64,000 nt of DNA from a bacterium. GTDB lineage: Bacteria > Krumholzibacteriota > Krumholzibacteriia > LZORAL124-64-63. Below are positions 1 through 53,807 of the stretch, piece by piece. Under the pieces are notes generated by a model. That model searched no databases and was not told the origin of the DNA. It saw nothing but the letters and a program-made list of their open reading frames with translations. The stretch covers positions 80,033-144,032 of the forward strand of contig JAAEQC010000102.1 of assembly GCA_024231905.1 (NCBI GenBank). Direction: 5' to 3'. A program made the position numbers and the translations under genes. Positions within the stretch are counted from its first letter, which is position 1; each line of letters opens with the position of its first letter.

Positions 1-1
1 G

Positions 2-430
2 CGGCGGGGCGGTACGAAACTCGAAGCCAGCCGGTACATCCACGAGAAGGACGAGAACCGGACCATGTGGAACCGGTTCCTGTACGGTGTGGAGTCGCTG
101 GCCGACTGCGTCTATTACGACCAGGTCGTCAACCTGGAGGTGATGTCGGTGACCGAGGCGACCGGCATCGTCGAGCGGGCCACGACCTACCCGTGTTTCC
201 GCTGGCTGGACGAGGACCGGCAGGCCATCGACGACATCGCGCTCGCCACGCGGGTCAAGTCGATCCTCATGCAGAACTTCAACACGCGGATGTTCACCCT
301 CGACGTGCAGGCCGACGGCGGCACCGTCACGGTTACCGGTCGCGGGGACGAGGAGGCGGCCAAGGACGAGATCAGCCGGATCTGCCTCGCGGTTCCGGGC
401 GTCGAGAACGTGACCGTGGTCCACGAATGA
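2..430 (+). CDS. BON-domain protein, 5' partial (reading frame is open to the window edge)
   Basis: ORF 65..430 stays open in-frame upstream to position 2. The C-terminal region TVTVTGRGDEEAAKDEISRICLAVPGVENVTV resembles a BON (OsmY-like) domain. Confidence 0.45.
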   Translation, partial: RRGGTKLEASRYIHEKDENRTMWNRFLYGVESLADCVYYDQVVNLEVMSVTEATGIVERATTYPCFRWLDEDRQAIDDIALATRVKSILMQNFNTRMFTLDVQADGGTVTVTGRGDEEAAKDEISRICLAVPGVENVTVVHE

Positions 431-479
431 CGAAACGGCCCGCCCGGCCCGGCCGGGCGGCTGGAAAACGAGATACGCC

Positions 480-962
480 ATGAGCGAGACGACAACCGGC
501 TTCGACACCGGTGGCATCGATACCATCCTGGCCCGGTACGACGGCTTCGAGGGCCATTTGATCGGTATCCTCCACGAAGTGCAGAAGCTGTACAACTACC
601 TGCCGCGAGAGGCGCTCGAACGTGTGTCCGAACAGACCGGGTTCACGCTCGAGCGGCTCTACAGCATCGCGACGTTCTACAACTTCTTCAGCCTCGAGCC
701 TCGGGGCAAGCACGTCATCCGGGTCTGTACCGGTACGGCCTGCCACGTCAAGGGCGCCCCGCGCGTCCTCCAGGAAATCGAGGAAAGGCTGGAGATCTCC
801 TCGGACGAGACCACGCCGGACGGACAGTTCAGCATCGAGCATGTCCATTGCGTGGGCACGTGCAGTCTGGCACCGGTGGTCGTGGTCGACCAGGACACGC
901 ATTCCCACGTGAAACCGTCGAAGGTCCGCGCGCTGCTGAAGAACTACGAGGACAAGGGATGA
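480..962 (+). CDS. NuoE/HoxE/HndA-like thioredoxin-fold [2Fe-2S] subunit (NADH dehydrogenase 24 kDa family)
   Basis: 160 aa with CTGTAC...CVGTC cysteine motifs typical of the 24-kDa subunit family. ATG start at 480, followed by the NuoF-like gene. Confidence 0.85.
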   Translation: MSETTTGFDTGGIDTILARYDGFEGHLIGILHEVQKLYNYLPREALERVSEQTGFTLERLYSIATFYNFFSLEPRGKHVIRVCTGTACHVKGAPRVLQEIEERLEISSDETTPDGQFSIEHVHCVGTCSLAPVVVVDQDTHSHVKPSKVRALLKNYEDKG

Positions 963-1026
963 TCCCGGCGGCACACCGCCCCGGCCGCGGGGCCGGCGAC
1001 GGTACGCACGGGGACAACCGAAGGCG

Positions 1027-2859
1027 TTGCACTTGAACCAGAATACGAACAACGACCGCCCCGGGGGCGGCAGCGGACGAGCGATCGTCATCCGTGTCTG
1101 CGTGGGCACGGGGGGTATCGCCGCCGGCGCCCACGAGGTCATGGCGGAGTTCCGCTCCCAGTTCCTGCAGCAGGGCGTGGACGGCCGCGTCCAGGGACGA
1201 CCCTGCTCCTGCGACATCAAACAGGTCGGCTGCCGCGGCTTCTGCGCGCGCGACCTGCTGGTCGACGTGGAAGTGGACGGCCGGACGCACACCTACCAGA
1301 AGGTGAAGAAGACCTACGTCAAACGGATCGTCCAGGACCACATCCTCCTGGGGGAGCCCGTGGCCTCGTGGCTTGTCGGCGACGACTATGCCCAGTTCCA
1401 TGACCAGCAGGAGAAGATCCTGCTCGCCGAGTGCGGCACCGTCGACCCCGAGGACATCGATTCCTACATCGAGTACCACGGCTACGAGGGCGCCCGCAAG
1501 GCCCTCGGCGGGATGAAGCCCGAGGAGGTCATCGACGAGGTCACGCGGTCGGTGCTGCGCGGCCGGGGCGGGGGCGGCTTCCCCGCCGGCCGGAAGTGGA
1601 CATCCACCCGCCGGGCCGCCGGAGAGCCCAAATACGTGATCTGCAACGCGGACGAGGGGGATCCGGGCGCCTTCATGGACCGGGCCCTGCTTGAAGGAAC
1701 CCCGCACGCGGTCATCGAGGGCATGCTCATCGGCGCCTACGCCGTCGGCTCCTGCGAAGGCTTCATCTATGTGCGTGCCGAGTACACCCTGGCCGTGGAA
1801 CGCTTCCAGACCGCCCTGGACCAGGCCTACGAACACGGCTTTCTGGGCAAGGACATCCTCGGCAGCGGTTTCGACTTCGACCTGAGCATCCGTCTCGGCG
1901 CCGGCGCCTTCGTCTGCGGCGAGGCCAGCGCCCTGTGCATGTCCATCATGGACCGCATCGGCACGCCCTGGCCCAAGCCGCCCCGGCTGGCCGAGAAGGG
2001 CCTGTGGGGCAAGCCCACCAACGTGAACAACGTGGAGACCTGGGCCAACGTTCCCAAGATCATCCGCCACGGCGCCGAGTGGTTCGCGTCCATCGGGACT
2101 CCCAAGTCCACGGGCACGAAGATCTTCTCCCTGGTGGGCAAGATCAACAACACGGGCCTGGTGGAGGTGCCCATGGGCATCTCCCTGCGCACCATCATCG
2201 AGGACATCGGGGGGGGCATCCCCAAGGGCAAGAAGTTCAAGGCGGTGCAGACCGGCGGTCCTTCCGGCGGTTGCATCCCAGCCGAGCACCTGGACTCGCC
2301 GGTGGACTTCGAGACCCTCGAAGAGTTGGGCTCGATCATGGGTTCGGGGGGCATGGTCGTCATGGACGAGGACACGTGCATGGTGGACGTGGCCAAGTAC
2401 TTCGTGACCTTCTGTCGGGACGAGAGCTGCGGCCAGTGCACGCCCTGCCGCGACGGCACGGCCCAGATGGTGCAGCTTCTGGAGGACATCTGTGAGGGTC
2501 GGGGAACCCCCGAGCACATCACCAAGCTGGAACAGCTCTCGGAACTGGCCACTCTCGGTTCCCTGTGCGGGCTCGGCAAGGCGGCGGCCAACCCGGTGCT
2601 GTCGACCCTGCGCTTCTTCCGCGACGAGTACGACGCCCACGTCAACGACAAGCGTTGCCCGGGCGGCGTGTGCAAGGCCCTGCACACCCTGCACATCAAC
2701 GCCGACCTCTGCACCGGTTGCCGGGTCTGCGCGGTGGCCTGCCCGGTCGAGGCCATCACCGGCGAGAAGAAGCAGCCTCACGTGATCGACAACGAGATCT
2801 GTACCCGGTGCGGCAGCTGCTACGATGTCTGCCGCTTCGACGCGATCTACAAGGAGTAG
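1027..2859 (+). CDS. NuoF/HydB/HndC-like 51-kDa flavoprotein subunit with N-terminal [2Fe-2S] Trx-like domain and C-terminal 2x[4Fe-4S] ferredoxin domain
   Basis: GRGGGGFPAGRKW (FMN/NADH site), ESCGQCTPCRDG (N3 [4Fe-4S]) and C-terminal CTGCRVCAVACP...CTRCGSCYDVC. The start appears to be TTG at 1027, so exact start is uncertain. Confidence 0.85.
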   Translation: MHLNQNTNNDRPGGGSGRAIVIRVCVGTGGIAAGAHEVMAEFRSQFLQQGVDGRVQGRPCSCDIKQVGCRGFCARDLLVDVEVDGRTHTYQKVKKTYVKRIVQDHILLGEPVASWLVGDDYAQFHDQQEKILLAECGTVDPEDIDSYIEYHGYEGARKALGGMKPEEVIDEVTRSVLRGRGGGGFPAGRKWTSTRRAAGEPKYVICNADEGDPGAFMDRALLEGTPHAVIEGMLIGAYAVGSCEGFIYVRAEYTLAVERFQTALDQAYEHGFLGKDILGSGFDFDLSIRLGAGAFVCGEASALCMSIMDRIGTPWPKPPRLAEKGLWGKPTNVNNVETWANVPKIIRHGAEWFASIGTPKSTGTKIFSLVGKINNTGLVEVPMGISLRTIIEDIGGGIPKGKKFKAVQTGGPSGGCIPAEHLDSPVDFETLEELGSIMGSGGMVVMDEDTCMVDVAKYFVTFCRDESCGQCTPCRDGTAQMVQLLEDICEGRGTPEHITKLEQLSELATLGSLCGLGKAAANPVLSTLRFFRDEYDAHVNDKRCPGGVCKALHTLHINADLCTGCRVCAVACPVEAITGEKKQPHVIDNEICTRCGSCYDVCRFDAIYKE

Positions 2860-2861
2860 CC

Positions 2862-3641
2862 GTGATCTCGATCCAGTTGAACGACCTGCAGGTCGAGTGC
2901 GAACAAGGCCGGACGATTCTCGAAGTCGCCCGTGCCCACGGTGTCGAGATTCCGACCCTCTGCCACCATCCGTCGCTGCCGCCGGCGGGATTGTGCCGCC
3001 TGTGCATCGTCGAGCAGGAATGGCCCGACGGGGAACGTTCGGTGAAGTCCTCCTGCACGCTCCAGGCCACCGACGGCATGAAGATCCTCACGGATACGGA
3101 CCGGGTGCATTCTCTGCGCGCCGGCGTCATCGAACTGCTCCTGCTGCGGGCGCCCCACGCCACGTCGATCCGCGACCTGGCCAATCTCTACGGCGTCGAG
3201 CAACCCGCCCTGACGCAGTTGCAGGAACCCGACGGTTGCGTCCTTTGCGGCCTGTGTGTGCGCACCTGCGAGCAGTCCATGGCCCGCGAGGCCATCACCT
3301 GCGCCCAGCGTTCCACCGGACGCTCGGTGGCCACGGCCTTCCACGACCGTTCGGAGAACTGCGTGGGCTGTGGTTCCTGTGTGAACGTGTGCCCCACGGG
3401 CGTGCTCCACCTGGAGCAGCAGGACGGCGTCCGCCGTATCTTCTGGAACGACCAGCTACTGAACGAGACCGAACTGGTGCCCTGCGAGGACTGCGGGGAC
3501 GAGTTCACCACGCGGCAGTTGCTGGACTGGACCGCCCAGCGGGGCAAGCCCAACGCCGTCGATACCGAACACCCGGTCTGTCCGGCCTGTGCCCGCCAGC
3601 GGCAGGCCCGCCGCATGGCGCGGCCCCTGGCCCGGTACTGA
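2862..3641 (+). CDS. HoxU / NuoG-N-terminal-like [2Fe-2S]+[4Fe-4S] subunit (259 aa) with no catalytic domain
   Basis: GTG start 3 nt after the upstream TAG and preceded by AAGGAG. Plant-type 2Fe-2S motif (CHHPSL...CRLC), a His/Cys3 cluster and CVLCGLCVRTC / CVGCGSCVNVCP ferredoxin motifs. It ends after about 260 aa. Confidence 0.75.
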   Translation: MISIQLNDLQVECEQGRTILEVARAHGVEIPTLCHHPSLPPAGLCRLCIVEQEWPDGERSVKSSCTLQATDGMKILTDTDRVHSLRAGVIELLLLRAPHATSIRDLANLYGVEQPALTQLQEPDGCVLCGLCVRTCEQSMAREAITCAQRSTGRSVATAFHDRSENCVGCGSCVNVCPTGVLHLEQQDGVRRIFWNDQLLNETELVPCEDCGDEFTTRQLLDWTAQRGKPNAVDTEHPVCPACARQRQARRMARPLARY

Positions 3642-3678
3642 GCGCCCGCCGCCGGCGGCGCCCGAGGAGGATGATCCC

Positions 3679-4431
3679 ATGGCGCTGCCGTTGCTCCTGG
3701 CGGTGATTTTTCTGTCTTCCCTGGTGCTGACCATGGTCGGTCTCGGCGGTGGCCTGATCTTCTCGCCGCTGTTCGTGCTGCTGGACTTCCCCGTGAGCCA
3801 GGCCGTGTCGGCCTCCCTGCTACTCAACGGCATCGCGGCCGTGTCCGCAGCTTCGGTGTACCTGAGCAAACGCATGGTGGACATGGCGCTGGCCGTGCCG
3901 CTGATCGTCACCTCCGTGGCCGGGGCCCCCCTGGGGGCGCTCATGACCTCCCGGGTGGACGTGCGCCTGTTCACGGGACTGCTGGCGGCGGTGGTCTTCC
4001 TGGCGGCCCTGCGCATGATTTTTGGCCGGAAGGGCGCCGACGGCCGGCGGGAGATCGGCCGTACCCACCGGATCGTGGGCGGGGGGCTGATCGGCCTGGG
4101 CATCGGCTTCCTGGGGGGGATGCTGGGCATCGGCGGCGGCGTGTTCATCGTGCCGCTCTTGATCTACGTGCTGGGCGTACCCACCAAGACGGCGGCGGCC
4201 TCGTCCATCTTCATCGTCTGCTTCTCCTCCTTTGCCGGATTCGCCACCCACGCCGCCCGGGCGGACGTGGACTGGCGCTTCCTGGGTCTGGCTGCGGTCT
4301 GCTCCTTCGCCGGGGGGCAGATCGGTTCGCGGATCATGGCGGACCGGCTCCGGGGGCGCACCGTACGCCTGGTTTTCGGGGTCGTGCTGCTGGCCTTCTG
4401 CGCCCGGCTCGTGTCGCGGATCGTCGCCTGA
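3679..4431 (+). CDS. TauE/SafE (DUF81) family sulfite/anion exporter, polytopic membrane protein
   Basis: Glycine-rich hydrophobic repeats (GLGGGLIFSPLFV.., GIGGGVFIVPLLIYVLG) typical of TauE/SafE. The ATG follows GAGGAGGATGA. Confidence 0.75.
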   Translation: MALPLLLAVIFLSSLVLTMVGLGGGLIFSPLFVLLDFPVSQAVSASLLLNGIAAVSAASVYLSKRMVDMALAVPLIVTSVAGAPLGALMTSRVDVRLFTGLLAAVVFLAALRMIFGRKGADGRREIGRTHRIVGGGLIGLGIGFLGGMLGIGGGVFIVPLLIYVLGVPTKTAAASSIFIVCFSSFAGFATHAARADVDWRFLGLAAVCSFAGGQIGSRIMADRLRGRTVRLVFGVVLLAFCARLVSRIVA

Positions 4432-4575
4432 ACCACCGGTAGCGGCGACCGCCCCGGCCCCGCGCGAAACAATCCCCGGCCGATCCGGTTTTGAGGTGCA
4501 GAATTCGGCTCCGAGGATATTGTCAAGGGCCGCTCCATGTGCCACATTGTCGGGTACTGTTCTCAGGTCAGGGAC

Positions 4576-4606
4576 GATCCCGCCCGAGTCGCGGGATCCG
4601 GTTTTC
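4576..4606 (+). terminator. GC hairpin plus T-run about 22 nt upstream of the pckG start codon (terminator or attenuator-like)
   Basis: gatcccgc-ccgagtc-gcgggatc followed by cggtttt. Confidence 0.4.
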
Positions 4607-4627
4607 ATGGCATAGAAGGAGGCAGAG

Positions 4628-6586
4628 ATGCTGGAGTTGAAGAAGGGTGTCGACATCCTCTCCCATTGCGGTGGGATCGAGTCGCTCGATGAAGCCAAGA
4701 AGCTTTTCGCCGAGAAGATGAACGCGGAGCACCTGGCCCGCCTGGATAAGATCAAGACCGGTGACGCCCTCCTGAAGATCGCCAACGCGATCGCGCTGTG
4801 CCAGCCGGACAGCGTCTTCATCTCCACCGGCTCCCCCGAGGACATGGCCGCGGCCAAGAAGATGAGCCTCGACAAGGGCGAAGAGAAGACGCTTGCCATG
4901 AAGGACCACACGATCCACTTCGACCTGCCCGAGGAGCAGGGCCGGATCGTCGACCGCACCTACTACATCATCAACGAGGGCGAGCCCGTCAGCGTGCTGG
5001 GCAAGAAGATGATCCGCGACGAGGCCCTGGCCTACGTCAAGGAGCAGATGACCGGCATCATGAAGGGCAAGACCATGCTGGTCGGCTTCTTCAGCCGCGG
5101 TCCGGCCGGCGCCAAGATGGCCCTGCCCGCCCTGGAGATCACCTCGTCCACCTACGTCATGCACTCGGGCGACATCCTCTACCGCCACTGCTACGACCGC
5201 TTCGACGAGCAGGTCGAGAAGTCGGGCACGTTCCTGACCAACGTCCACTCCGAGGGCCAGAACCGCCCCGAGGACCTGCCCAACGCCCGCGTCTTCATGG
5301 ACCGCAGCTGGCTGACGACGTTCTCCATGTTCTGCACCTACGCCGGCAACACCCTGTTGCTGAAGAAGGGCAACCACCGCTTCGCCGTGGACCTGGCCAC
5401 CTACTACGGCAAGGGCCAGGAGCTCTCCGAGCACATGTTCATCACGGGCATGGAAGAGGACAGCGGCCGGATCACCTGGTTCGCCGGCGCCGCGCCCAGT
5501 GGCTGCGGCAAGACCACCACGGCCATGGCCGGCACCGAGTTCGTGGGTGACGACCTGGCCCAGATGTGGATCGCCGAGGACGGCACCATGCGGGCCATCA
5601 ACCCCGAGCAGGGCATCTTCGGTATCGTGGCCGACGTGAACCGCGAGGGCGACCCGTTCCTGATGAAAAACCTGCGCGAGGAAGGGACCGAGATCATCTG
5701 GTCCAACGTGCTGATCGACGACAAGGGCGTTCCCCACTGGACCGGTAACGGCGAAGAGCACGCCGACAAGGGCGTCAACTTCCAGGGCGAGTGGACCAAG
5801 GGCAAGAAGAACGCCGAGGGCAAGGAGATCCCCATCTCCCACCCCAACGCGCGTTGCACCCTGCGTTGCCGGGACATCGGCAACTACAGCAACACGACCG
5901 GCGAGGATCCCGCGGGCGCGCCGGTGAAGGTCGTTACCTACTCCGGCCGTGACGCCGACACCATGCCTCCGGTGTGGGCCGGCAAGAACTCGGACCACGG
6001 CGTGGTCATCGGCGCCTCCATCGTCTCGGCCGCTACGGCGACCGAGGTGGGGGCTTCCGGCGTCAAGCGCCAGCCCTGGGCCAACGCGCCGTTCATCCCC
6101 GGCGCCCTGGCCGACTACATGCGCGTACAGTTCCAGTTCTACGGCAGCGACAAGTACACCGACGCCGGCAAGCCCGTCCTGGCCGGTCTGAACTACTTCC
6201 TGACCAACGAGGCTCGCGGCGGCGAGGGCCGGGCCCTGCTGGGCGAGAAGCGCGACGTGAAGGCCTGGCTGACCTGGCTGGCCCGTTACGCCCACGGCGA
6301 CTACAAGGGCATCGAGACGCCGGTCGGCTTCATTCCCCGGTACGAAGAGATGAAGCAGACCTTCGCGGACACGATCCAGAAGGACTATCCGAGGGATCTG
6401 TACGACAAACAGTTCTCCATCTACATCGACAACATCCTCGGCCGCATCGAACTGCAGCGCGAGGCCTTCGGCAAGGAAGAGAACCTGCCGGAGCAGCTGT
6501 TCAAGGTGTACGACGAGTGGGAGGCCGGACTCAACGAACTGAAGGGCAAGTTCGGCGCCATCGTGACGCCGGATCAGCTCGGCTAG
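4628..6586 (+). CDS. pckG: Phosphoenolpyruvate carboxykinase (GTP)
   Basis: 652 aa. PSGCGKTTTAM resembles the PSACGKTNLAM kinase-1a motif, and GNTLLLKKGNHRF resembles GNSLLGKKCFALR. Strong RBS GAAGGAGG. Confidence 0.85.
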   Translation: MLELKKGVDILSHCGGIESLDEAKKLFAEKMNAEHLARLDKIKTGDALLKIANAIALCQPDSVFISTGSPEDMAAAKKMSLDKGEEKTLAMKDHTIHFDLPEEQGRIVDRTYYIINEGEPVSVLGKKMIRDEALAYVKEQMTGIMKGKTMLVGFFSRGPAGAKMALPALEITSSTYVMHSGDILYRHCYDRFDEQVEKSGTFLTNVHSEGQNRPEDLPNARVFMDRSWLTTFSMFCTYAGNTLLLKKGNHRFAVDLATYYGKGQELSEHMFITGMEEDSGRITWFAGAAPSGCGKTTTAMAGTEFVGDDLAQMWIAEDGTMRAINPEQGIFGIVADVNREGDPFLMKNLREEGTEIIWSNVLIDDKGVPHWTGNGEEHADKGVNFQGEWTKGKKNAEGKEIPISHPNARCTLRCRDIGNYSNTTGEDPAGAPVKVVTYSGRDADTMPPVWAGKNSDHGVVIGASIVSAATATEVGASGVKRQPWANAPFIPGALADYMRVQFQFYGSDKYTDAGKPVLAGLNYFLTNEARGGEGRALLGEKRDVKAWLTWLARYAHGDYKGIETPVGFIPRYEEMKQTFADTIQKDYPRDLYDKQFSIYIDNILGRIELQREAFGKEENLPEQLFKVYDEWEAGLNELKGKFGAIVTPDQLG

Positions 6587-6608
6587 CCGATCCGACCGCA
6601 GGACAGAC

Positions 6609-6642
6609 GAGGCGCCCGGTTCGCGAGAGCCGGGCGCCTTGG
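6609..6642 (+). terminator. Hairpin terminator downstream of pckG
   Basis: ggcgcccgg-ttcgcgagag-ccgggcgcc followed by ttgg. Confidence 0.4.
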
Positions 6643-6804
6643 CGTATTCGGGAACCGTCACGGCCGCCCCGGTGAACGACAGCCGGACAATCATGCTCCT
6701 GGATCGAGCCCCCCAATCTGTGGTATAGATTGTCGAGAACGGTACGGCAACGGGTGGGCGCGGGTATCGCGTGCACCGACCACGCCTCCGGTCCGAGGTG
6801 TAAG

Positions 6805-8817
6805 ATGGCCCCGACGAGCGAGAGCCACTTCGGTCACGATTCCGGGGAAACGAGCGTCGGCAGCAGAGAAGACCTGCAGACGGTGCTGGACGGCATTTCC
6901 GCGGGCGTCATCCTCCAGCATGCCTCGGGCAAGATCCTCACCTGGAATCGCACCGCCGCCCACATATTCGGCCTCGAGGCCAGGGATATCGTCGGCCGCG
7001 CGACCGCGGATGCCGAGTGGGCCACGATCCGCGAGGACGGCTCCCCGCTCCCCGGCCGCGACCACCCTTCCATGGTCACCCTGCGCACGGGCCGGCCCTG
7101 TCGGGGCCAGGTCATGGGCGTGCGCCAACCGAACGGCAACTACCGCTGGATCTCCATCGACACCGAACCCATCTTCGCCACCGAAGCCGGCGCCATCGAA
7201 GCGGTCGCCATCTCCTTCACCGACATCACCGAGCAGCGGCAGGTGGCCGCCGACCTGGTGCGGAGCCGGCGCAGCATGGCCACGCTCCTGGGCAACCTGC
7301 CGGGCATGGTGTACCGCTGCCAGAATGATCCCGACTGGACGTTCGACTACGTGAGCGAAGGCTGTCTCGGATTGACCGGCTACGAGCCCGACAACCTGGT
7401 CAACAGCCGGACCATCTCCTACGCCGAGATCATCCATCCCGAGGACCGGCAACTGGTCTGGGACGGGGTCCAGGAGGCGCTGGCGGCGGGACACGAGTTC
7501 GAACTCGAATACCGGATCATCACGAGATCGGGCCAGGTGCGCTGGATGTGGGAACGCGGCATCATGGTGCCCGGGGACCTGGGCGAACCAGACCTGCTCG
7601 AGGGCTTCATCACCGATATCACACCCCGCAAGCGGGCCGAAGAAGAACGCGTGGGCCTGGAGTTGCGCCTGCGGCAGTCCCAGAAGATCGAGGCCATGGG
7701 CACCATCGCCGGGGGGATCGCCCACGACTTCAACAACATCCTTGCTTCGATCATGGGCTACGCGGAACTGGCGCTGCTCGATGCGGAGCCGGAATCGGAC
7801 CTGCAATCGTCCCTGGACGCGGTGGTCAAGGCCAGCCTCCGGGCGCGGGACCTGGTCTCCCAGATCCTCACCTTCAGCCGGGGAGGGGAACACGACCGGC
7901 GTCCGGTGCGGCTGGACGGCATCGTGGACGAAGCGGTCGGCATGCTGCGCTCGGTCCTGCCTTCCACGGTGGGAATCGAGGTTGTCGTCGACGGCGCGCC
8001 GCCTGTCATCGACGCGGATCCGTCGGAGCTCCATCAGGTGGTCGTGAATCTGGCCACCAACGCCGTGCACGCCATCGAACCGAACACCGGCACCATCACC
8101 ATCACCGTGGGCGCCACCGAGGTCGCCGCCCACGAACTGACCGCGGGCGAACTCGCTTCCGGCCGCTACGCTTGCCTGGAGGTCCGGGACAACGGTTGCG
8201 GCATTCCCACCTCCAGTCTGGGCTCCATCTTCGACCCTTACTTCACGACCCAGGTGAACGGCAAGGGCACGGGCCTGGGCCTGGCCGTGGTCCACGGCAT
8301 CGTCCTGGCCCACGGGGGTGGCCTGAGGGTCGTCAGCACGCCGGAGGTCGGCTCGGTTTTCGCCGTGTACCTACCGCTCTGCGCGACCGGCACCGCCGAG
8401 GATCCTCCCGCGTCCGGAGAACCGGTGGGTGACGTCTGCGGCCATATCCTGGTGGTGGACGACGAGGAATCGCTGGTCGTGCTCAGGACCCGGGAGCTGT
8501 GCCGTCAGGGCTGCGAGGTCACCGCGGTCACGGACAGCCTGCAGGCGCTGGCCCTGTTCCAGGCGGATCCCCAGGCGTTCGATCTGGTGATCACGGATAT
8601 GACCATGCCGGGCATGGCCGGGGACGAACTCTTCCGGGCGATCCGGTCCGTGCGCGCGGACCTGCCGGTGGTGATCTGCACCGGTTACAGCGAGCGCCTG
8701 GGCAAGCTGGCGGACCGGGAATCGACGCCGGACGCGATCATCCACAAGCCCGTGCGCCACGAGGAGTTCCTGGCCACGGTGCGGAAACTGCTGTCGCGGC
8801 CGCGGCCCGGTCGCTGA
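6805..8817 (+). CDS. Hybrid sensor histidine kinase (two PAS domains, HisKA, HATPase_c, C-terminal receiver)
   Basis: PAS-like blocks, an H-box (GIAHDFNNIL), an HATPase G-box region and a C-terminal receiver (ILVVDDEES...DLVITDMTMPGM). The start could be 6730 or 6805. Confidence 0.8.
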   Translation: MAPTSESHFGHDSGETSVGSREDLQTVLDGISAGVILQHASGKILTWNRTAAHIFGLEARDIVGRATADAEWATIREDGSPLPGRDHPSMVTLRTGRPCRGQVMGVRQPNGNYRWISIDTEPIFATEAGAIEAVAISFTDITEQRQVAADLVRSRRSMATLLGNLPGMVYRCQNDPDWTFDYVSEGCLGLTGYEPDNLVNSRTISYAEIIHPEDRQLVWDGVQEALAAGHEFELEYRIITRSGQVRWMWERGIMVPGDLGEPDLLEGFITDITPRKRAEEERVGLELRLRQSQKIEAMGTIAGGIAHDFNNILASIMGYAELALLDAEPESDLQSSLDAVVKASLRARDLVSQILTFSRGGEHDRRPVRLDGIVDEAVGMLRSVLPSTVGIEVVVDGAPPVIDADPSELHQVVVNLATNAVHAIEPNTGTITITVGATEVAAHELTAGELASGRYACLEVRDNGCGIPTSSLGSIFDPYFTTQVNGKGTGLGLAVVHGIVLAHGGGLRVVSTPEVGSVFAVYLPLCATGTAEDPPASGEPVGDVCGHILVVDDEESLVVLRTRELCRQGCEVTAVTDSLQALALFQADPQAFDLVITDMTMPGMAGDELFRAIRSVRADLPVVICTGYSERLGKLADRESTPDAIIHKPVRHEEFLATVRKLLSRPRPGR

Positions 8818-21980: not shown

Positions 21981-24080
21981 CTACCGGGCCGCCCCGGTCG
22001 GCACCTCGGTCGGTCGCTCAACAAATGGTTCGTTCTCCTCTGGAGATTGTAGCAACCACAAGTCGAACCACGCCCGGTCCCACTCCATCTTCGCCAGCCG
22101 GTTCTCGTGGGTGGTCAGCCCGTGGGGTTCGCCCGGATAGACCACCAGTTCCGTGGGCACGTCCAGGTAGTGGCGCAGGGCCCGGTACAGGGCCTTGCTG
22201 TGGGCCGGTGGCACCCGCGGGTCGTTGCCGCCCACGTGGATCAGGGTGGGCGTCCTGACCTGGTCCAACCCGTACAGGGGACTGGCCTGCTGGTAGTGGT
22301 GCTCCTGCTCCCAGGGCAGGCCCTCCACGAAGTTGATCACGTGGCCGGGCGTGTCCTCGGTGCCCCACTGGATGACCATGTCCAGGACGCCGGCGCCGCT
22401 GCTGGCGGCGGCGAACAGGTCCGGTTCGGCGACGATCATGCAGTTGGTCAGGTAGCCGCCGTTGCTCCAGCCCATGACGCCGATGTGGTCCGGGTCGGCG
22501 ATGCCATCGTCGATCAGCCAGCGGGTGCCGGCGGTGATGTCCGCCACCTCGATCTCGTTCTCGCGGCCGATGAGCTTCTCCAGGAACTCGTCCCCGTAGC
22601 CGGTGGACCCATGGTAGTTGGGACTGAGCATGGCGTAGCCCTGGCTGGCCATGAGGGTGCGGCCGTAGATCCACAGGCGCAGACGGTGCTTGGTGCTGCT
22701 GGTGGGACCGCCGTGGAGTTCGATGACCGTGGGCAGGGGGCCGTCCGCCCGCTCGTAGCCGGCCGGCAGTTCGAGAATGCCCCACACCTCGTCGCCGTCA
22801 GCGCCGGTCCAGCTCACGTGCTCGATACGCGGCAGGACCCAGGAGTCCACCTGAGGATTGGTCTTGGTCAGGCGGGAGAAACGGTCCTTGGCGGCCACGG
22901 CGTAGATGTCGTTGGCGTCGGTGATGGTCTCCAGGACCACCGCCAGACGCCGGCCGCGCTCGTCGAAGCTGAAAGAGCCGATGACGCCGTCGCCGTCGGC
23001 CAGCAATTCGGAGCGGCCTTGGCCGCCCTGTTGCACGTCGTGGGTGCCGTACACCCGCACCCGGGCCATGCTCTCGCCCCGGTAGCAGAGGGTGCGCGAG
23101 GTGCCGCGCCAGGCCAGACCACCGTCGAAGGTCACCATTTCCGGACGCCCGATCCGCTGCAGGGGCCATCCGTCGCGGCCCTGCTCGGCGACCCAGATCT
23201 GGGACGCGTAGCCGTCGTAGGCGATGGAGAAGGCCAGGGCGCGGCTGTCGCCCGACCAGGCCAGGCCCTCGATCCAGCCGTAGGGGGAGGGATGGTCGGC
23301 GCGCCACTGCTGGTCCGTCAGGGCGGTGAGCTCGCCGCTCTCCAGGTCGAGGACCTCCACCCGGGACCAGCCTTCCTTGAAGATCAGTTCGTTGTCCTCG
23401 GTGGTGACCATGGCCAGCCGCCGGCCGTCGGGGGACAGGCTCAACTCCCAGATCACCCGTTCGGCCGCCAGGACCTCGTCCTCGCGCCAGGCCAGCAGGT
23501 CCAGGCGGTGGATGGCCTGCAGGTCGCGCACGCCGTGGCCGTACTCCAGGTCGGCGTACTTCTCGCGCAGATCGGTCCACTCGTCGTCGCGGTGTTCCTT
23601 GCTGGTCACGTAGTAGAGAGCGGTGCCGTCGGGGGCGAGGGCGAAGTCGTCCACGCCGTCCTTCACGCGGGTCACGGGGACCGGATCGCCGCCGTTGGTG
23701 GGCACCCGCCATACCTGGCGCGAACCGTCCCGCGGGGGAGCCTCGAGGCCGGCGTCCACCCGGCCCAGGCACCAGATGTCGCGTCCGCCCGGACCCCAGG
23801 CCACGGCGCCGGGACCGAAGCCGTCGAAGGTCAGGCGCCGGCGGTCCGTGCCGTCGCGTCCCACGATCCACAGGTCGCGGCTGCGGCCTTCCTTGCCCTG
23901 GCCCCAGCGGCTCTCGCTGTGGGCGACCAGTTCGCCGTCGGGGGAGAGGGCCAGGTTGCCCAGGCCGATGAGGTCGAAGTAGTCCTCGGGCTGGGGAACG
24001 TGGTCGCGGAAGGGTGTCTCGGCCAGGGCGGGGAGCGCCAGGAACGCGGCGAGGATCATGATCACGGATAGCGAACGCAC
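21981..24080 (-). CDS. Secreted S9-family serine peptidase with N-terminal PD40/beta-propeller region
   Basis: GWSNGGY nucleophile motif, a C-terminal Asp/His region and a signal peptide. GTG start after GGAGGT. Confidence 0.8.
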   Translation of the reverse strand: MRSLSVIMILAAFLALPALAETPFRDHVPQPEDYFDLIGLGNLALSPDGELVAHSESRWGQGKEGRSRDLWIVGRDGTDRRRLTFDGFGPGAVAWGPGGRDIWCLGRVDAGLEAPPRDGSRQVWRVPTNGGDPVPVTRVKDGVDDFALAPDGTALYYVTSKEHRDDEWTDLREKYADLEYGHGVRDLQAIHRLDLLAWREDEVLAAERVIWELSLSPDGRRLAMVTTEDNELIFKEGWSRVEVLDLESGELTALTDQQWRADHPSPYGWIEGLAWSGDSRALAFSIAYDGYASQIWVAEQGRDGWPLQRIGRPEMVTFDGGLAWRGTSRTLCYRGESMARVRVYGTHDVQQGGQGRSELLADGDGVIGSFSFDERGRRLAVVLETITDANDIYAVAAKDRFSRLTKTNPQVDSWVLPRIEHVSWTGADGDEVWGILELPAGYERADGPLPTVIELHGGPTSSTKHRLRLWIYGRTLMASQGYAMLSPNYHGSTGYGDEFLEKLIGRENEIEVADITAGTRWLIDDGIADPDHIGVMGWSNGGYLTNCMIVAEPDLFAAASSGAGVLDMVIQWGTEDTPGHVINFVEGLPWEQEHHYQQASPLYGLDQVRTPTLIHVGGNDPRVPPAHSKALYRALRHYLDVPTELVVYPGEPHGLTTHENRLAKMEWDRAWFDLWLLQSPEENEPFVERPTEVPTGAAR

Positions 24081-24210
24081 GGCGGGACCTCCGGATAGTC
24101 TGTTGCCAGGAATTTTCGTCAGGTTACACTATCATGACCGATGCCTACGAGGTACCGGTTCCTGGTCCGGAGCGGTTCCGGACATCCACCCCCTTTCCCG
24201 GAGTCTCCAC

Positions 24211-26223
24211 GTGTGCGGAATCTGCGGCGCGTTCGCCCTGGACGGGCGCCTGGACCTGCCCGACAAGACGCCCGAACGCATGATCGGCGTCATGCGCCAT
24301 CGCGGTCCCGACGAGTTCGGCGCCTGGCGTGACGACCGCGTCTTCCTGGGCCACGCGCGCCTGAGCATCATCGATCTGGCGGGCGGCCAGCAACCCATGG
24401 CCGGCCGGGCCGACCATTGGCTCACTTTCAACGGCGAGATCTTCAACTACGTGGAACTGACCGAGGAACTGCGGGCCCTGGGCCACGTCTTCCGCACGCG
24501 CTGCGACACCGAGGTCATCCTCCGGGCCTACGAGGAGTGGGGCGACGCCTGCGTCGAGCGTTTCAACGGCCAGTTCGCCTTCGCCCTGTGGGACCGACCC
24601 CGCGGCCGCCTCTTCCTGGCCCGGGACCGTTACGGCATTCGCCCCCTCTACCTGGCCGCCCACGACGGGCGCCTGCTCTTCGCGTCGGAGATCAAGTCTC
24701 TGCGGGCCTACCCAGGCTTCGCCCCGGCCCTGGATCCGGGCTCCGTGGCGGAAGTCTCCACCTACTGGGTGAACATCGCCCCGGCCACCGCCTTCGCGGG
24801 CGTGGCCCAGTTGCCCCCCGGCCACACGGCCGTGGTGGAGGCGAATCCGTCCGGACCGCCCCCGCCCGCGCCCCTGCCGCCGGCGTTGCGAATCCGCCGC
24901 TACTGGCACCCGGAATTCCTGCCTGCGGACGAGGACCGGCGGCGCGTGGCCCCGGACGAGGCCTCGCGCCTGGCGAAGGACGTGCGCGAGGCCCTGGTCG
25001 ATGCTGCCACCATCCGTCTGCGGGCGGACGTGCCCGTGGGCGCCTACCTCTCCGGCGGCCTGGATTCCTCCACCACCGCGGCGCTGATCCACCGCTACAC
25101 GGACCACCGCCTGAAGACCTTCTCCGTGGGCTTCGCTGACCGGGACTACGACGAGACCGACTGGCAGTACGCCATGGCCGCCCACATCGGCACCGAGCAC
25201 GTCACGGTGAAAGTGGACGGCGACGACATCGCGTCCCGCTTCGAGGAAGTCGTGTGGCTGGCCGAGACGCCGGTCCTGCGCACGGCTCCGGCGCCCCTGC
25301 ATGCCCTGTCGGGCCTGGCCCGCTCCGAGGACTTCAAGGTCGTCCTGACGGGCGAGGGCGCCGACGAGGTCTTCGTGGGCTACAACATCTTCCGCGAGGC
25401 CAAGGTGCGCCGCTTCTGGGCGCGGGACCCGGCAGCGCGGGCCCGGTCCATGCTGCTGACCCGACTCTACCCTTACCTGGCCCAGTCGCCTCCGGAATTC
25501 CTGCGCCGCTTCTACGGCCAGGGCCTGGAGGACGTGGACGACCCCTTCTACTCCCACCGCCCCCGCTGGCACAATACGGGCGCCGTCGCCAAGCTTCTGG
25601 CGGTGGACGGAACCGACGCCCTGCGGTCCGCCGAGGAACGCCTGGCCGCCTCTCTGCCCGCGGAATTCACGGCCTGGGGACCGGTGGCCCGGGCCCAGTA
25701 CGTGGAGATGACCACCTTCCTGGCCGGCTATCTGCTCAGCTCCCAGGGGGACCGCATGCTCATGGGGCATTCGGTGGAGGGGCGCTTCCCGTTCCTGGAC
25801 CACGAACTGGCCGCTGTGGCCGCGCGGATACCCGCGTCGGCCAAGCTTCAGTCCCTGGTGGAGAAGGCGATATTGAAGGAGAGCGTTGCGGATCTGCTGC
25901 CCGCGAGTATCCTGAACAGGCCGAAGCAGCCGTACCGGGCGCCCGACGGCGCCAGTTTCGCCGGCAACGCCGGCCGCGATATCGTGGCCGCGCGGCTGGG
26001 CCAACACGGCGGCAGCCTGTGGGACGACCGCCGGGTGGGGGCCTTGCGGCGCAAGTGGGAAGCCGGCAAGCTGGCCAGCGCCCGCGACAACATGGCTTTC
26101 GTGGCCGCTCTGAGCGGCCGCATCCTCGAACACGAGTTCGGACCGGGTTTCGCTGACCGGCTGGCGTCTACGGAGCTGGCCCCGCAGGACCTGGTCTGGC
26201 GCGAACGACCCCGCGACGACTAG
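24211..26223 (+). CDS. Asparagine synthetase-family glutamine amidotransferase (AsnB-like, 670 aa)
   Basis: Starts (GTG)-CGICGAF (N-terminal nucleophile Cys), followed by the SGGLDSS PP-loop. Confidence 0.8.
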   Translation: MCGICGAFALDGRLDLPDKTPERMIGVMRHRGPDEFGAWRDDRVFLGHARLSIIDLAGGQQPMAGRADHWLTFNGEIFNYVELTEELRALGHVFRTRCDTEVILRAYEEWGDACVERFNGQFAFALWDRPRGRLFLARDRYGIRPLYLAAHDGRLLFASEIKSLRAYPGFAPALDPGSVAEVSTYWVNIAPATAFAGVAQLPPGHTAVVEANPSGPPPPAPLPPALRIRRYWHPEFLPADEDRRRVAPDEASRLAKDVREALVDAATIRLRADVPVGAYLSGGLDSSTTAALIHRYTDHRLKTFSVGFADRDYDETDWQYAMAAHIGTEHVTVKVDGDDIASRFEEVVWLAETPVLRTAPAPLHALSGLARSEDFKVVLTGEGADEVFVGYNIFREAKVRRFWARDPAARARSMLLTRLYPYLAQSPPEFLRRFYGQGLEDVDDPFYSHRPRWHNTGAVAKLLAVDGTDALRSAEERLAASLPAEFTAWGPVARAQYVEMTTFLAGYLLSSQGDRMLMGHSVEGRFPFLDHELAAVAARIPASAKLQSLVEKAILKESVADLLPASILNRPKQPYRAPDGASFAGNAGRDIVAARLGQHGGSLWDDRRVGALRRKWEAGKLASARDNMAFVAALSGRILEHEFGPGFADRLASTELAPQDLVWRERPRDD

Positions 26224-26244
26224 CGGACAGGGAGACGGGATTCC

Positions 26245-26496
26245 ATGAACGTGCGTGATAAGGTGTGCGAGTACATCATCGAGAACTTCCTCTTCGGCGA
26301 CGCCGAGCCCATGGCGGACGACACCATGTCGCTGCTGGACGAGGGCATCATCGACTCGGTGGGCGTCATGGAACTGGTGGCCTTCCTCGAGTCCGACTTC
26401 GGTATCTCCGTGGGCGACGAGGAACTCGTGCCCGACAACCTGGACTCGGTGGCCAACCTGGTGGCCTTCGTGGGCCGCAAGCAAGCCGCCGCCTAG
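26245..26496 (+). CDS. Acyl carrier protein
   Basis: 83 aa with IIDSVGVMELV (phosphopantetheine Ser in a DSx context). 4-helix ACP size. Confidence 0.75.
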   Translation: MNVRDKVCEYIIENFLFGDAEPMADDTMSLLDEGIIDSVGVMELVAFLESDFGISVGDEELVPDNLDSVANLVAFVGRKQAAA

Positions 26497-33021: not shown

Positions 33022-33446
33022 GGTCGGGGTCCCTTCGTTCGGCATATCGGATGATCCGATTCGGCGGTCTGTGGAAGCGAAGAGATTGTGCGCCGCGAAT
33101 CGCGAGGCATCATATCACGGTTGGGTATTCCGGATCGAAGCCCGTCCTGCGCGCTCCGGCGTTACGAAACGTTCTCCGATCGGGTGGTTTCGAGACTTCG
33201 GTGGTGAACTTATTGGTTGTCATTGAACTAGACAAGACCAGTCCTGGATTGTGTGACGATTCGCGGAGAGGGGTGATCTCTGAAGTCGAAAGGGAGGCTC
33301 GCCGTGCCCGGAAAGGCCGGCCGACTCGACTCGTCAATGGCGGTCCGGATTCGGTCCGAGGGGCGGATTTTCCATCGTACCGATAGGTGTTGGGTGCTTC
33401 CTGGTACCTGCAGAGCGTTGCTCCGGAACGCGGTGAAGGCGAAGGA

Positions 33447-53796: not shown

Positions 53797-53807
53797 CGCT
53801 CAGCCCC

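Follow-up and report, generated by a model that had tools for sequence, protein, structure and literature searches.

In the Type 2 enzymes of the Bfu family (Wor-, FdhFeFe-, Bam-, Por- and Mbh-Bfu), the BfuA subunit has neither A3 nor A5, and electrons from extra subunits enter via A4 (Schut et al. 2022; PMC9304861). According to that survey, BfuA proteins of this kind always serve extra subunits, and B5 is conserved in all Bfu enzymes. A close example is WorABCSL, the bifurcating tungsten aldehyde oxidoreductase of Acetomicrobium mobile (PDB 9MQX), in which the polyferredoxin WorS docks on an adaptor made up of the zinc finger and helix of WorA (PMC12318220). On the side of sulfur metabolism, Dissulfuribacter thermophilus and Desulfolithobacter dissulfuricans possess a cytoplasmic PhsA-like protein without a Tat signal and a PhsB-like ferredoxin, but no PhsC, and the redox partner of these enzymes is left open or assumed (PMC13490349, PMC9751629). 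TauE is co-induced in the D. thermophilus proteome (PMC13490349). The locus described here has the BfuABC core in common with WorABCSL, and by description its catalytic pair resembles the PhsAB-like pair of the two sulfur bacteria.

The bfuCBA module and its surroundings

The window, i.e. the whole 64-kb stretch of DNA that was analysed, begins inside a gene and carries the following features at its left end:

2-430, + strand: final 142 codons of a Cytidylate_kin2 + BON (CK2-BON) gene truncated by the window start; Pfam BON
480-962, + strand: bfuC, NuoE/HydC-like, 160 aa, [2Fe-2S] C1 subunit; Pfam 2Fe-2S_thioredx
1027-2859, + strand: bfuB, NuoF/HydB-like flavoprotein, 610 or 608 aa; Pfam and matches to BfuB chains
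2862-3641, + strand: bfuA, short WorA-type, 259 aa; PDB 9mqx_A, Cys columns, AF2 and Foldseek
3679-4431, + strand: TauE/SafE (TSUP-family) anion permease, 250 aa (MCP4572255.1); Pfam TauE, E 3e-49
4576-4608, + strand: terminator-like G+C hairpin and T-run in the tauE-PEPCK intergenic region

The sequence-only reading had described three coupled genes for NuoE-, NuoF- and short NuoG-like proteins at 480-3641, and coordinates, + strand and Pfam all agree with it. The GTG start of bfuA lies 2 bases past the bfuB stop and is preceded by AAGGAG at 2852-2857, and tauE, which begins 38 bases 3' of bfuA, is probably the last gene of the operon. The hairpin at 4576-4608 might mark the operon end; four terminator-like sites occur in 7 kb, with 3.2 expected by chance. 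The "BON protein" previously reported at 65-430 does have a BON domain but is not a complete gene. Positions 2-430 encode residues 124-265 of a 265-aa Cytidylate_kin2 + BON protein (P0249, MCP4572251.1, 100% identical), so the left flank of the locus is truncated by the window edge.

Among the 46 ORFs scanned across the 64 kb, no member of the hydrogenase, formate dehydrogenase, AFOR, GltD or Hdr families was found, and hoxYH were likewise absent from the window ORFs scanned, in keeping with what the earlier reading had said of the visible flanks. This lack of a catalytic partner family, together with the CK2-BON gene that separates the module from the genes upstream, would suit an NAD(P)H/ferredoxin diaphorase that stands alone, its acceptor module lying at another place in the genome or being of a kind not yet known. 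The truncated left flank already counts against such an arrangement, as do the upstream genes considered below.

BfuC, identical to GenBank MCP4572252.1, matches Pfam 2Fe-2S_thioredx with an E of 9e-50, and in the PDB it is closest to NfnC, WorC (4e-33) and the C subunits of bifurcating hydrogenases. The start codon of bfuB is uncertain, with TTG 1027 (610 aa) and TTG 1033 (608 aa) as candidates and a stop ending at 2859; the exact 610-aa product is absent from the protein collection searched. BfuB matches the BfuB chains of NfnABC, NiFe-HydABCSL, HydABC and WorABCSL with E values of 1e-193 to 1e-213 (WorB, 2e-193). Pfam assigns it Complex1_51K, SLBB, NADH_4Fe-4S and, at residues 556-607, two C-terminal Fer4 motifs, where two CxxCxxCxxxC motifs are found, while an N-terminal extension of about 130 residues aligns with the [2Fe-2S] domain at the start of the solved bifurcating HydB, NfnB and WorB chains. 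The sites are thus an N-terminal [2Fe-2S]-type site (B5), the FMN/NAD(H) site, B1, B2 and the C-terminal 2x[4Fe-4S] (B3, B4). All five B2 ligands, the equivalents of A. mobile C438, C476, H525, C531 and C536, are kept, among them the His reported to be restricted to bifurcating BfuB and absent from non-bifurcating homologues. The earlier view of the extra Fe-S domains as a bifurcating hallmark therefore holds, and the motifs support a module of the bifurcating (Bfu/HydBC) type; that it bifurcates is what we infer from this type.

The B5 site lacks one of the four canonical Cys. In the Mo-enzyme-linked BfuBs (the window protein and those of loci L001-L003, L008 and L009), Gly takes the place of the second Cys of C-x-G-x-G-C and an extra Cys lies further on, a shared derived character of this group. 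The incomplete ligand set gives some room to a single complex that does not bifurcate, either a plain NADH- or ferredoxin-dependent reductase or an enzyme whose substrate contains no sulfur (arsenate, selenite or other oxyanions, for example). The complete B2 set with its His and the retained B3/B4 domain speak against this.

The short BfuA subunit

The third protein of the module, identical to MCP4572254.1, had been read as a HoxU/NuoG-N-terminal protein that stops before any catalytic domain. Its length of 259 aa and the missing catalytic domain stand; the assignment to HoxU does not. Pfam finds Fer2_4 and a 4Fe-4S dicluster but no NADH-G_4Fe-4S_3 domain, which holds the His-ligated cluster, and for this reason its cluster content differs from that of HoxU and the NuoG N-terminus. 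An A3 motif is likewise missing from the alignment of 48 homologues, in which sixteen Cys are invariant or nearly invariant in the WorA pattern. The sites are as follows:

C34, C45, C48, C65: A1 [2Fe-2S] ligands
C126/129/132/136 and C167/170/173/177: two [4Fe-4S]
C208, C211, C240, C243: Cys4 zinc-finger motif
241-258: C-terminal helix

Over its full length the protein matches WorA (PDB 9mqx_A) with an E of 2e-42. The AF2 model (pLDDT 94.4) also ends in the helix 241-258, and Foldseek returned 9mqx_A as its top match with TM 0.84/0.88, all others being at or below 0.64. Like WorA, this BfuA is short, has A1, A2 and A4 only, and carries the Cys4 zinc finger and the C-terminal helix. From sequence and model, we identify it as a WorA-type "Type 2" BfuA, and the module falls under the Type 2 definition (PMC9304861). 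HoxEFU of the bidirectional [NiFe] hydrogenases has NuoE-, NuoF- and NuoG-N-terminal-like subunits in the same gene order, yet the NCBIfam HoxE model gives 147 bits against a 224-bit cut-off and HoxU 102 against 333, the TM to HoxU is 0.59 as compared with 0.84 to WorA, and a zinc finger takes the place of the His-ligated [4Fe-4S] domain. A HoxU-like identity was rejected on the missing His-ligated cluster and the presence of the zinc finger and C-terminal adaptor helix.

The upstream molybdoenzyme and its relatives

The 394,732-bp contig that encodes this BfuA also encodes a Psr/Phs-like molybdopterin oxidoreductase of 695 aa (P0123, MCP4572249). GenBank accessions run consecutively from the molybdoenzyme (MCP4572249) through CK2-BON (251), NuoE (252), BfuA (254) and TauE (255) to PEPCK (256). 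In two close relatives (BfuA 75-78% identical), the slot corresponding to 250 holds a four-cluster ferredoxin gene, from which we infer a four-[4Fe-4S] PhsB-like ferredoxin at this position. Taken with synteny, the accessions place the molybdoenzyme gene apparently three genes before nuoE, just upstream of position 1. The claim of an orphan without a catalytic partner in cis thus does not hold, nor does what lies upstream make an ordinary Hox/Hnd/Fds operon. The suggestion of a novel acceptor survives in changed form, as a Psr/Phs-type Mo enzyme and not a hydrogenase, FdhA, NfnB/GltD or Hdr.

The best PDB match of the molybdoenzyme is Thermus PsrA (2vpw_A, 1e-114), with residue 5 aligned to PsrA residue 39. 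With MTQTSTYSICGMC at its N-terminus, the protein cannot accommodate a Tat signal, which indicates a cytoplasmic enzyme. Conservation extends to the Mo-ligand column (Cys135) and to the FS0 Cys. The top-scoring NCBIfam model is PhsA (559 bits, below its 694-bit cut-off), and there are lower-scoring matches to ArrA, Dms/Ynf and acetylene hydratase; homologues that share 50-57% identity carry the labels Caldimicrobium, Dissulfurispiraceae, Nitrospirae, Thermodesulfobium and Desulfomonile. The ferredoxin of L001 matches both PsrB (2vpw_B, 8e-26) and WorS (9mqx_E, 1.5e-17). The predicted partner is therefore a cytoplasmic Psr/Phs-family Mo enzyme with a putative four-cluster ferredoxin. PsrABC (Thermus, PDB 2VPW) and PhsABC (Salmonella) have homologous catalytic and four-cluster subunits, the Cys Mo ligand and the FS0 motif, but they are membrane-bound, whereas a Tat signal, an NrfD-type anchor and quinol coupling are lacking here, and electrons would instead come from cytoplasmic NADH and ferredoxin.

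The gene arrangement is conserved in related loci. L001 has the order molybdoenzyme (84% identical), ferredoxin, CK2-BON, NuoE, NuoF, BfuA (78%), TauE; L002 (BfuA 75%) follows it from the ferredoxin onward and continues with molybdenum cofactor biosynthesis genes, and L083 follows it as far as NuoF, at the contig end. In L001 and L002 the CK2-BON protein is 65-70% identical, and TauE, in the equivalent position, 81-83%. With a molybdoenzyme three accessions before nuoE on the same contig, an identical order in L001, L002 and L083, and a BfuA without A3 and A5, a form that always serves extra subunits (PMC9304861), a free-standing diaphorase is very improbable. We instead consider it probable that 480-3641 forms the 3' half of an operon split by the window start. 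In full, this would comprise a PhsA/PsrA-like Mo/W-bis-pyranopterin subunit, the putative PhsB-like ferredoxin, CK2-BON, bfuC, bfuB, short bfuA and TauE/TSUP.

The CK2-BON gene stands between the two halves of the operon; L084 and L088 have the molybdoenzyme, ferredoxin, NuoE, NuoF and BfuA genes without it. PhsA-like and ferredoxin genes adjoin NuoE/NuoF in about a dozen loci and in several gene orders. Elsewhere the PhsAB-like pair lies beside other partners, an 11-subunit Nuo complex (Nuo subunits in L085-L087) or a GltD-like flavoprotein, and the catalytic pair is therefore not tied to Bfu. Locus tags of D. dissulfuricans likewise show Nuo subunits directly after phsAB, as in L085-L087; in the window operon the partner is a Bfu module. 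These other contexts, and the unrelated-looking gene between the halves, could mean that the neighbours are separate enzymes, with the PhsAB-like pair acting alone or with another donor and BfuCBA independently. We regard this as unlikely. Adjacency is kept over 46-84% PhsA identity and through divergent and inverted orders; the neighbour is an electron-input module in every alternative context, in line with a plug-in catalytic head; the short BfuA lacks a catalytic domain and bears the WorA docking elements; and all of the nearest BfuBs are Mo-enzyme-linked and have the derived B5 motif in common.

A candidate NADH- and ferredoxin-linked sulfur reductase

The operon probably encodes a single cytoplasmic complex in which thiosulfate or polysulfide reduction is coupled to NADH and ferredoxin. 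NAD(H) would bind at the BfuB FMN and ferredoxin at the C-terminal 2x[4Fe-4S] domain of BfuB, while the short BfuA would dock the four-cluster ferredoxin through its zinc-finger domain and C-terminal helix, by analogy with WorA. This docking mode is suggested by the analogy; the helix is much more basic than the hydrophobic WorA helix, which counts against the likeness. Electrons would pass along molybdopterin - FS0 - four [4Fe-4S] - A4 - A2 - A1 - BfuB. Most likely, NADH and reduced ferredoxin would be used jointly (confurcation) to reduce a cytoplasmic sulfur compound, and TauE might export sulfite or import the substrate.

Thiosulfate is the favoured substrate, because the thiosulfate/sulfide + sulfite couple has an E0' of about -400 mV, almost exactly that of H+/H2 in bifurcating hydrogenases, and NADH by itself could not reach so low a potential. 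Salmonella Phs depends on the pmf. Sequence cannot assign substrates within the Psr/Phs/Ttr/Arr/Srr group, and polysulfide, tetrathionate, selenite or arsenate is thus possible. Polysulfide, at about -260 mV, would need no confurcation, which, with the PhsA score under the equivalog cut-off and the lesser ArrA, Dms/Ynf and acetylene hydratase matches, favours a non-bifurcating or non-sulfur enzyme. Such an enzyme has a low probability in our estimate, as many loci have, alongside the pair, TauE/TSUP genes, whose family annotation is transport of sulfite and organosulfonates (they adjoin the PhsA-like gene in L083-L086), and D. thermophilus proteomics tie the cytoplasmic PhsAB-like enzyme to thiosulfate disproportionation (PMC13490349).

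The proposed NADH- and ferredoxin-dependent complex would thus resemble WorABCSL in reaching its partner via a WorS-related, ferredoxin-like subunit with four [4Fe-4S] clusters, as judged from the L001 ferredoxin. It differs in its catalytic subunit, which is of the Psr/Phs branch of the DMSO-reductase superfamily (Mo/W-bisPGD) where WorL is of the AFOR family, and in the CK2-BON and TauE genes, the altered BfuB N-terminal cluster motif and the basic BfuA helix. Across 29 surveyed loci that encode a full-length short BfuA, the partner was AFOR, CODH/ACS, POR or FdhA, in agreement with PMC9304861. A Psr/Phs-type partner is not mentioned in that survey, the main text of which contains neither polysulfide, thiosulfate nor molybdopterin, and we found no description of a Psr/Phs-Bfu pairing. 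A Psr/Phs-type molybdoenzyme with a Bfu module is thus a pairing not listed among the known Bfu-family enzymes, and its third substrate, in contrast to those of the surveyed Type 2 enzymes, would be an inorganic sulfur compound.

Subunits of the bifurcating-type module

Three plus-strand genes occupy positions 480-3641 and carry the expected Pfam domains, so that the sequence-only reading stands as to their presence and description. They are named here after the subunits of the electron-bifurcating BfuABC (Bfu) family, in which B1-B5, A1-A5 and C1 denote cluster or metal sites:

480-962, + strand: bfuC (NuoE/HydC homologue), 160 aa, full-length thioredoxin-like [2Fe-2S] protein (Pfam 2Fe-2S_thioredx, E 9e-50)
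TTG 1027 or 1033 to 2859, + strand: bfuB (NuoF-like), ~610 aa, with Nuo51 FMN domain, SLBB, NADH_4Fe-4S and two C-terminal 4Fe-4S motifs
GTG 2862-3641, + strand: bfuA, 259 aa, with a Fer2_4 [2Fe-2S] domain and a 4Fe-4S dicluster domain (Pfam)

BfuC displays the motifs CTGTAC and CVGTC of the C1 [2Fe-2S] subunit, and in the PDB it is matched best by C subunits from bifurcating enzymes. BfuB matches the solved bifurcating B subunits NfnB, NiFe-HydB, FeFe-HydB and WorB with E-values of 1e-193 to 1e-213. Its Pfam matches to Complex1_51K (5.8e-42) and NADH_4Fe-4S (5.3e-32) correspond to the FMN/NAD(H) domain and the B1 [4Fe-4S] cluster, and the motifs GRGGGGFP, NADEGDPG and ESCGQCTPC are seen in the sequence. 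The N-terminus is extended by about 130 residues, which align with the N-terminal [2Fe-2S] domain of the same four proteins, and two Fer4 motifs at residues 556-607 provide B3/B4, with CxxCxxCxxxC occurring twice in orthologues. The B2 site consists of four Cys (one often Thr) and a His; it is present in virtually all BfuB proteins, and the His is absent from non-bifurcating homologues (PMC9304861). Using the ligand list of that Bfu survey (Schut et al. 2022) and an alignment to 7t2r_B, the NiFe-BfuB of Acetomicrobium mobile, we found all five B2 ligands kept (equivalents of C438, C476, H525, C531 and C536), mapping onto DEDTC, LEDIC and AHVNDKRCPGGVC of the window protein. The B2 ligands, His included, together with the C-terminal B3/B4 domain bear out the earlier assignment of the module to the bifurcating type. 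On sequence grounds, the module has every feature by which the Bfu family is recognized, save for an ambiguous B5 ligand set.

The B5 domain is present in BfuB, but its C-x-G-T-G-C motif reads VCVGTGG, the second Cys being replaced by Gly (window 1090-1250, residues ~20-75). An extra, non-canonical Cys pair (PCSCD) lies 7-9 residues ahead of the C-x3-C pair in the N-terminal domain, and a Cys of this pair may stand in for the lost ligand, giving an alternative ligand set. In the alignment, the same change occurs at five other loci (L001, L002, L003, L008 and L009), all with Bfu modules adjoining molybdopterin enzymes; it was found only in such modules, and not in the aligned Wor-, Por- and CODH-linked ones.

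BfuA starts two bases past the bfuB stop, behind an AAGGAG box. It had been read as a HoxU-like or truncated NuoG protein, an assignment that its cluster content does not bear out: the His-ligated cluster domain (NADH-G_4Fe-4S_3) was not detected in a Pfam scan, and the protein scores 102 bits on the NCBIfam HoxU model against a cut-off of 333. The same applies to the module as a whole. A HoxEFU-type, NAD-reducing [NiFe] hydrogenase is contradicted by the HoxE score as well (147 versus 224 bits) and by a differing cluster content, and neither the window nor L001 and L002, the loci of two close relatives, gave a Pfam match to a NiFe hydrogenase family. A complex I NuoEFG module is likewise rejected by the scores (NuoF_fam 480 bits versus a cut-off of 559; NuoG 89 versus 470), and Pfam scans of the window ORFs found no other nuo genes near the module.

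The best solved-structure match of BfuA is WorA (9MQX chain A; full length, E 2e-42), the BfuA of WorABCSL, a bifurcating tungsten aldehyde oxidoreductase from A. mobile. An alignment of 48 homologues shows conserved Cys for the A1 [2Fe-2S] cluster (C34, C45, C48 and C65) and for two [4Fe-4S] clusters (C126, C129, C132 and C136; C167, C170, C173 and C177), and the invariant Cys sets account for one [2Fe-2S] and two [4Fe-4S] clusters only. A further set has the pattern of a zinc finger, with C208 invariant and C211, C240 and C243 at least 90% conserved. The AlphaFold2 model built on this alignment (pLDDT 94.4, pTM 0.85) ends in a C-terminal helix (241-258). In a Foldseek search of the PDB with this model, 9mqx_A ranks first (TM 0.84/0.88, rmsd 2.4 Å) and all other entries reach a TM of at most 0.64, HoxU being at 0.59. 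WorA is described as a BfuA without A3, in which the four Cys equivalent to the A5 ligands of other enzymes form a zinc finger, and its C-terminal α-helix recruits the polyferredoxin WorS, bringing S4 within 10.7 Å of A4 (PMC12318220). A BfuA without A3 and A5 defines Type 2, in which extra subunits feed electrons via A4 (Schut et al. 2022, PMC9304861). By its cysteine pattern and predicted fold, gene 3 is thus a WorA-type Type 2 BfuA with A1, A2, A4, a predicted Cys4 zinc finger and a putative C-terminal adaptor helix. For annotation, a short "HoxU-like" protein that has a Cys4 motif near its C-terminus should be read as an adaptor subunit that implies a nearby partner.

The enzyme probably encoded upstream

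As electrons enter a Type 2 BfuA via extra subunits, a partner is implied. Scanning 46 ORFs across the 64-kb window with Pfam, we found no hydrogenase, formate dehydrogenase, AFOR, GltD, NfnB or Hdr, in line with the earlier remark that none of the usual partners lies in the visible flanks. The other window genes include the following:

23983-28034, + strand: small cluster of asparagine synthase, acyl/peptidyl carrier protein (PP-binding) and AMP-binding adenylating enzyme
28273-33114, - strand: gingipain-like C25 peptidase, 1613 aa, with CarboxypepD_reg, P_proprotein, FlgD_ig and a T9SS C-terminal sorting domain
37184-40235, - strand: adjacent DAO FAD oxidoreductase and Fer2_4/Pyr_redox_2 protein, like HcnBC, opine oxidase or archaeal proline dehydrogenase; unrelated to the module
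52264-55214, - strand: two multihaem c-type cytochromes, one NapC/NirT-like and the other matching the seven-haem Multi-haem_cyto family

Two of these were considered as partners and rejected, the DAO and Fer2_4/Pyr_redox_2 pair (37.2-40.2 kb) and the multihaem cytochromes (52.3-55.2 kb); both are distant, on the other strand and unconserved in the relatives' loci. The T9SS sorting domain of the C25 peptidase hints at an organism from the FCB group, and a gene similar to this peptidase also occurs in L001. A scan of window positions 1-7000 gave no sigma-70-like promoter, a search that is uninformative for this organism.

The relatives' loci carry a different candidate. L001, whose BfuA is 78% identical to that of the window, encodes in order a molybdopterin oxidoreductase (695 aa), a four-cluster Fer4_11 ferredoxin (169 aa), a Cytidylate_kin2 (CK2) protein, NuoE, NuoF, a short BfuA and a TauE permease. 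L002 (BfuA 75% identical) starts within the ferredoxin gene and continues in the order of L001, its module being followed by the molybdenum cofactor synthesis genes MOSC, MoeA, MobB, MoaA and MobA. L083, whose molybdoenzyme shares 71% identity with the L001 query, keeps the L001 order until the contig ends, and L084 (62%) has the molybdoenzyme, ferredoxin, NuoE, NuoF and short BfuA without a CK2 gene. The three-gene arrangement is conserved, with NuoE, NuoF and short BfuA consecutive in L001, L002 and L084.

The window itself begins within this gene order. The "BON protein" at 65-430 is part of a longer gene whose open frame runs off the left edge: the translation of window 2-430 coincides with residues 124-265 of MCP4572251.1 (265 aa) at 100% identity. 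Two related contigs each encode a Cytidylate_kin2 protein of 266-267 aa, the C-terminal half of which is 65-70% identical to this translation. A search with the L001 molybdoenzyme retrieved MCP4572249.1 (695 aa), which is 84% identical to it. MCP4572249.1, the CK2-BON protein, NuoE (MCP4572252.1), gene 3 (MCP4572254.1), TauE (MCP4572255.1) and PEPCK (MCP4572256.1) are all assigned to one contig of 394,732 bp. Protein accessions of annotated genome submissions run in gene order, and here the series 251-252-254-255-256 matches the order of the window. On this basis, the molybdoenzyme gene is very probably the third one ahead of nuoE, and gene 250 separates it from the CK2-BON gene. The accession chain here and the synteny of L001, L002, L083 and L084 thus both display the Type 2 trait of extra catalytic and ferredoxin-like genes alongside bfuABC. 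The module had been called an orphan without a catalytic partner in cis; the chain MCP4572249-256 and the relatives' synteny overturn this by placing a PhsA-like molybdoenzyme upstream. The orphan appearance arises from the place where the window was cut. Most of the genes that define the pairing lie outside it, and no module at a window edge should be annotated as an orphan.

The CK2-BON fusion between ferredoxin and bfuC occurs in the window clade and in L083 and is absent from L084 and L003; at E 1e-10, its homologues number only 26 among 5.8 billion proteins. TauE/TSUP permease genes adjoin the PhsAB-like pair in many of the surveyed loci. A second, larger TauE fused to DUF8269 (~560 aa) stands divergent from the PhsA-like gene in L001 (1488-3170, - strand) and L083 (5544-7232, - strand), so that such loci hold two TSUP-family permeases.

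The best solved relative of the molybdoenzyme is PsrA of the Thermus thermophilus polysulfide reductase (2vpw_A, E 1e-114), and the alignment begins at query residue 5 against PsrA residue 39. The N-terminus of MCP4572249.1 reads MTQTSTYSICGMC, with the FS0 motif from residue 10 and no Tat motif. The Mo-ligand Cys135 and the FS0 columns C10/C13/C17/C44 are conserved among 44 homologues. The ferredoxin matches PsrB (8e-26) and WorS (9mqx_E, 1.5e-17). No gene for an NrfD-family membrane anchor (PhsC/PsrC) was found in L001, L083 or L084. The lack of a Tat signal and of an NrfD-type anchor points to a cytoplasmic PhsAB-like enzyme as the partner. Its top NCBIfam model is PhsA, at 559 bits and below the 694-bit cut-off, and the substrate is not assignable from sequence. 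We considered a formate dehydrogenase, as the nearest other Bfu modules (L008 and L009) adjoin a true FdhA; those FdhA proteins score 930 bits on the formate dehydrogenase model against a cut-off of 666, whereas MCP4572249.1 scores 228, far below its PhsA score. A Wor-Bfu enzyme was rejected too: AFOR_N and AFOR_C are absent from the window, L001 and L002, and the partner is a Molybdopterin/Molydop_binding enzyme. The BfuA is of the WorA type, but the AFOR-family tungstopterin subunit WorL of WorABCSL was not found at these loci.

In its main text, the Bfu survey mentions neither polysulfide nor thiosulfate nor molybdopterin (PMC9304861), and we found no description of a Psr/Phs-Bfu enzyme in the open-access literature. 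The interest of the locus lies in this Psr/Phs-Bfu pairing.

Distribution of the pairing

We surveyed the pairing from both of its sides. Starting from the short BfuA in GTDB genomes, 29 loci with a full-length, zinc-finger-bearing BfuA were obtained. Their neighbours are AFOR (Wor), CODH/ACS, pyruvate oxidoreductase, FdhA (L008 and L009, Acidobacteriota) and PhsA-like enzymes (L001 and L003). The survey recovers the Type 2 partners already on record, with the Psr/Phs type as an addition. A short WorA-type BfuA with NuoF was also seen in methanogen metagenome-assembled genomes (MAGs): L014 (Methanofollis), L038 and L047 (Methanoregula), L014 adjoining an AFOR-cluster protein. Bifurcating WORs are stated to occur only in Bacteria (PMC12318220), and these loci may represent either an archaeal case or a binning artefact.

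The second survey started from the PhsA-like enzyme in metagenomes, with counts taken over loci that extend at least 3 kb downstream. The PhsAB-like pair has NuoE and NuoF beside it at about a dozen of them, in varying orders that include divergent and inverted ones. These Bfu-linked loci fall into two subtypes, one with a canonical BfuB as in the window and the other with NuoF fused to a GltD-like domain. In the fusion at L003 (5945-9103, 1052 aa), which adjoins PhsA-like genes, Fer4_20 and Pyr_redox_2 replace the C-terminal 2x[4Fe-4S] domain; ORFs in L118, L120 and L164 were assigned by their length, similar to that of the L003 fusion. The fused subtype possibly has an NADPH site.

Another 11 loci carry an 11-subunit Nuo complex without NuoEFG (NuoB, D, I, A, C, H, J, K, L, M and N) directly after the ferredoxin gene. 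Nuo-linked loci are L085, L086, L087 (Thermodesulfobium acidiphilum, CP020921), L089-L097 and L105. It looks as if the PhsAB-like pair replaces the NADH-input module of the Nuo complex, an arrangement with Nuo that has been noted before in Thermodesulfovibrio (PMC5165239). TauE often stands divergent upstream in these Nuo-linked loci.

About 35 loci (among L098-L167) lack both a Bfu and a Nuo module. Two of them, L099 and L142, were scanned with Pfam, and both encode a 694-721-aa GltD/NfnB-like flavoprotein (Fer4_20, Pyr_redox_2 and Fer4) after the ferredoxin gene; most of the others show just a weak short-BfuA-like match farther downstream. The GltD-like context may be the commonest one for the PhsAB-like pair in the metagenome set. 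In L142, a separate short BfuA-like 2Fe-2S/4Fe-4S protein is encoded downstream. Judged from gene neighbourhoods, the PhsAB-like pair acts as a catalytic head to which different electron-input modules are joined.

Proposed reaction and its implications

Thiosulfate cleavage to sulfide and sulfite has an E0' of about -400 mV, close to that of H+/H2. NADH alone, or menaquinol without proton-motive force, is too weak for thiosulfate reduction, while NADH and reduced ferredoxin together suffice. The thermodynamic logic would be the same as that of the bifurcating hydrogenases, the thiosulfate couple being near H+/H2. Thiosulfate reduction in Salmonella depends on the proton-motive force, and the alternative Nuo context of the PhsAB-like pair fits this dependence.

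Building on the observed gene set, cofactor motifs, WorA-type fold and recurrent adjacency, a working model can be drawn on the pattern of 9MQX. In it, BfuA would dock the four-cluster ferredoxin by means of its zinc-finger domain and C-terminal helix, and the electron path would link molybdopterin, FS0, the four [4Fe-4S] clusters, A4, A2, A1 and BfuB. On BfuB, the FMN would be the site for NAD(H) and B3/B4 the site for ferredoxin. NADH and reduced ferredoxin would jointly drive the cleavage of thiosulfate to sulfide and sulfite, with polysulfide or another oxyanion as alternative substrates, and TauE would serve either for sulfite export or for uptake of the substrate. Our tentative proposal, which may well prove wrong, is that this is the first Bfu enzyme acting on inorganic sulfur: a cytoplasmic confurcating thiosulfate reductase that uses NADH and ferredoxin, requires neither quinones nor proton-motive force and relies on TauE for sulfite export.

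In Dissulfuribacter thermophilus, proteomics showed strong induction of a PhsAB-like enzyme when thiosulfate is disproportionated (PMC13490349). PhsAB-like enzymes without the quinol-binding PhsC are described as functionally unstudied, and their electron route is stated as an open question (PMC13490349, PMC9751629). If the proposal is true, one redox partner would be named for the cytoplasmic PhsAB enzymes of sulfur-disproportionating bacteria, and PhsAB would be a catalytic head that can be exchanged between Bfu, 11-subunit Nuo and GltD-type modules. If the PhsAB-like pair and the Bfu core form one complex, this would give a testable answer to how PhsC-less PhsAB is supplied with electrons, the question left open in those two studies, and flavin-based electron bifurcation would reach inorganic sulfur chemistry.
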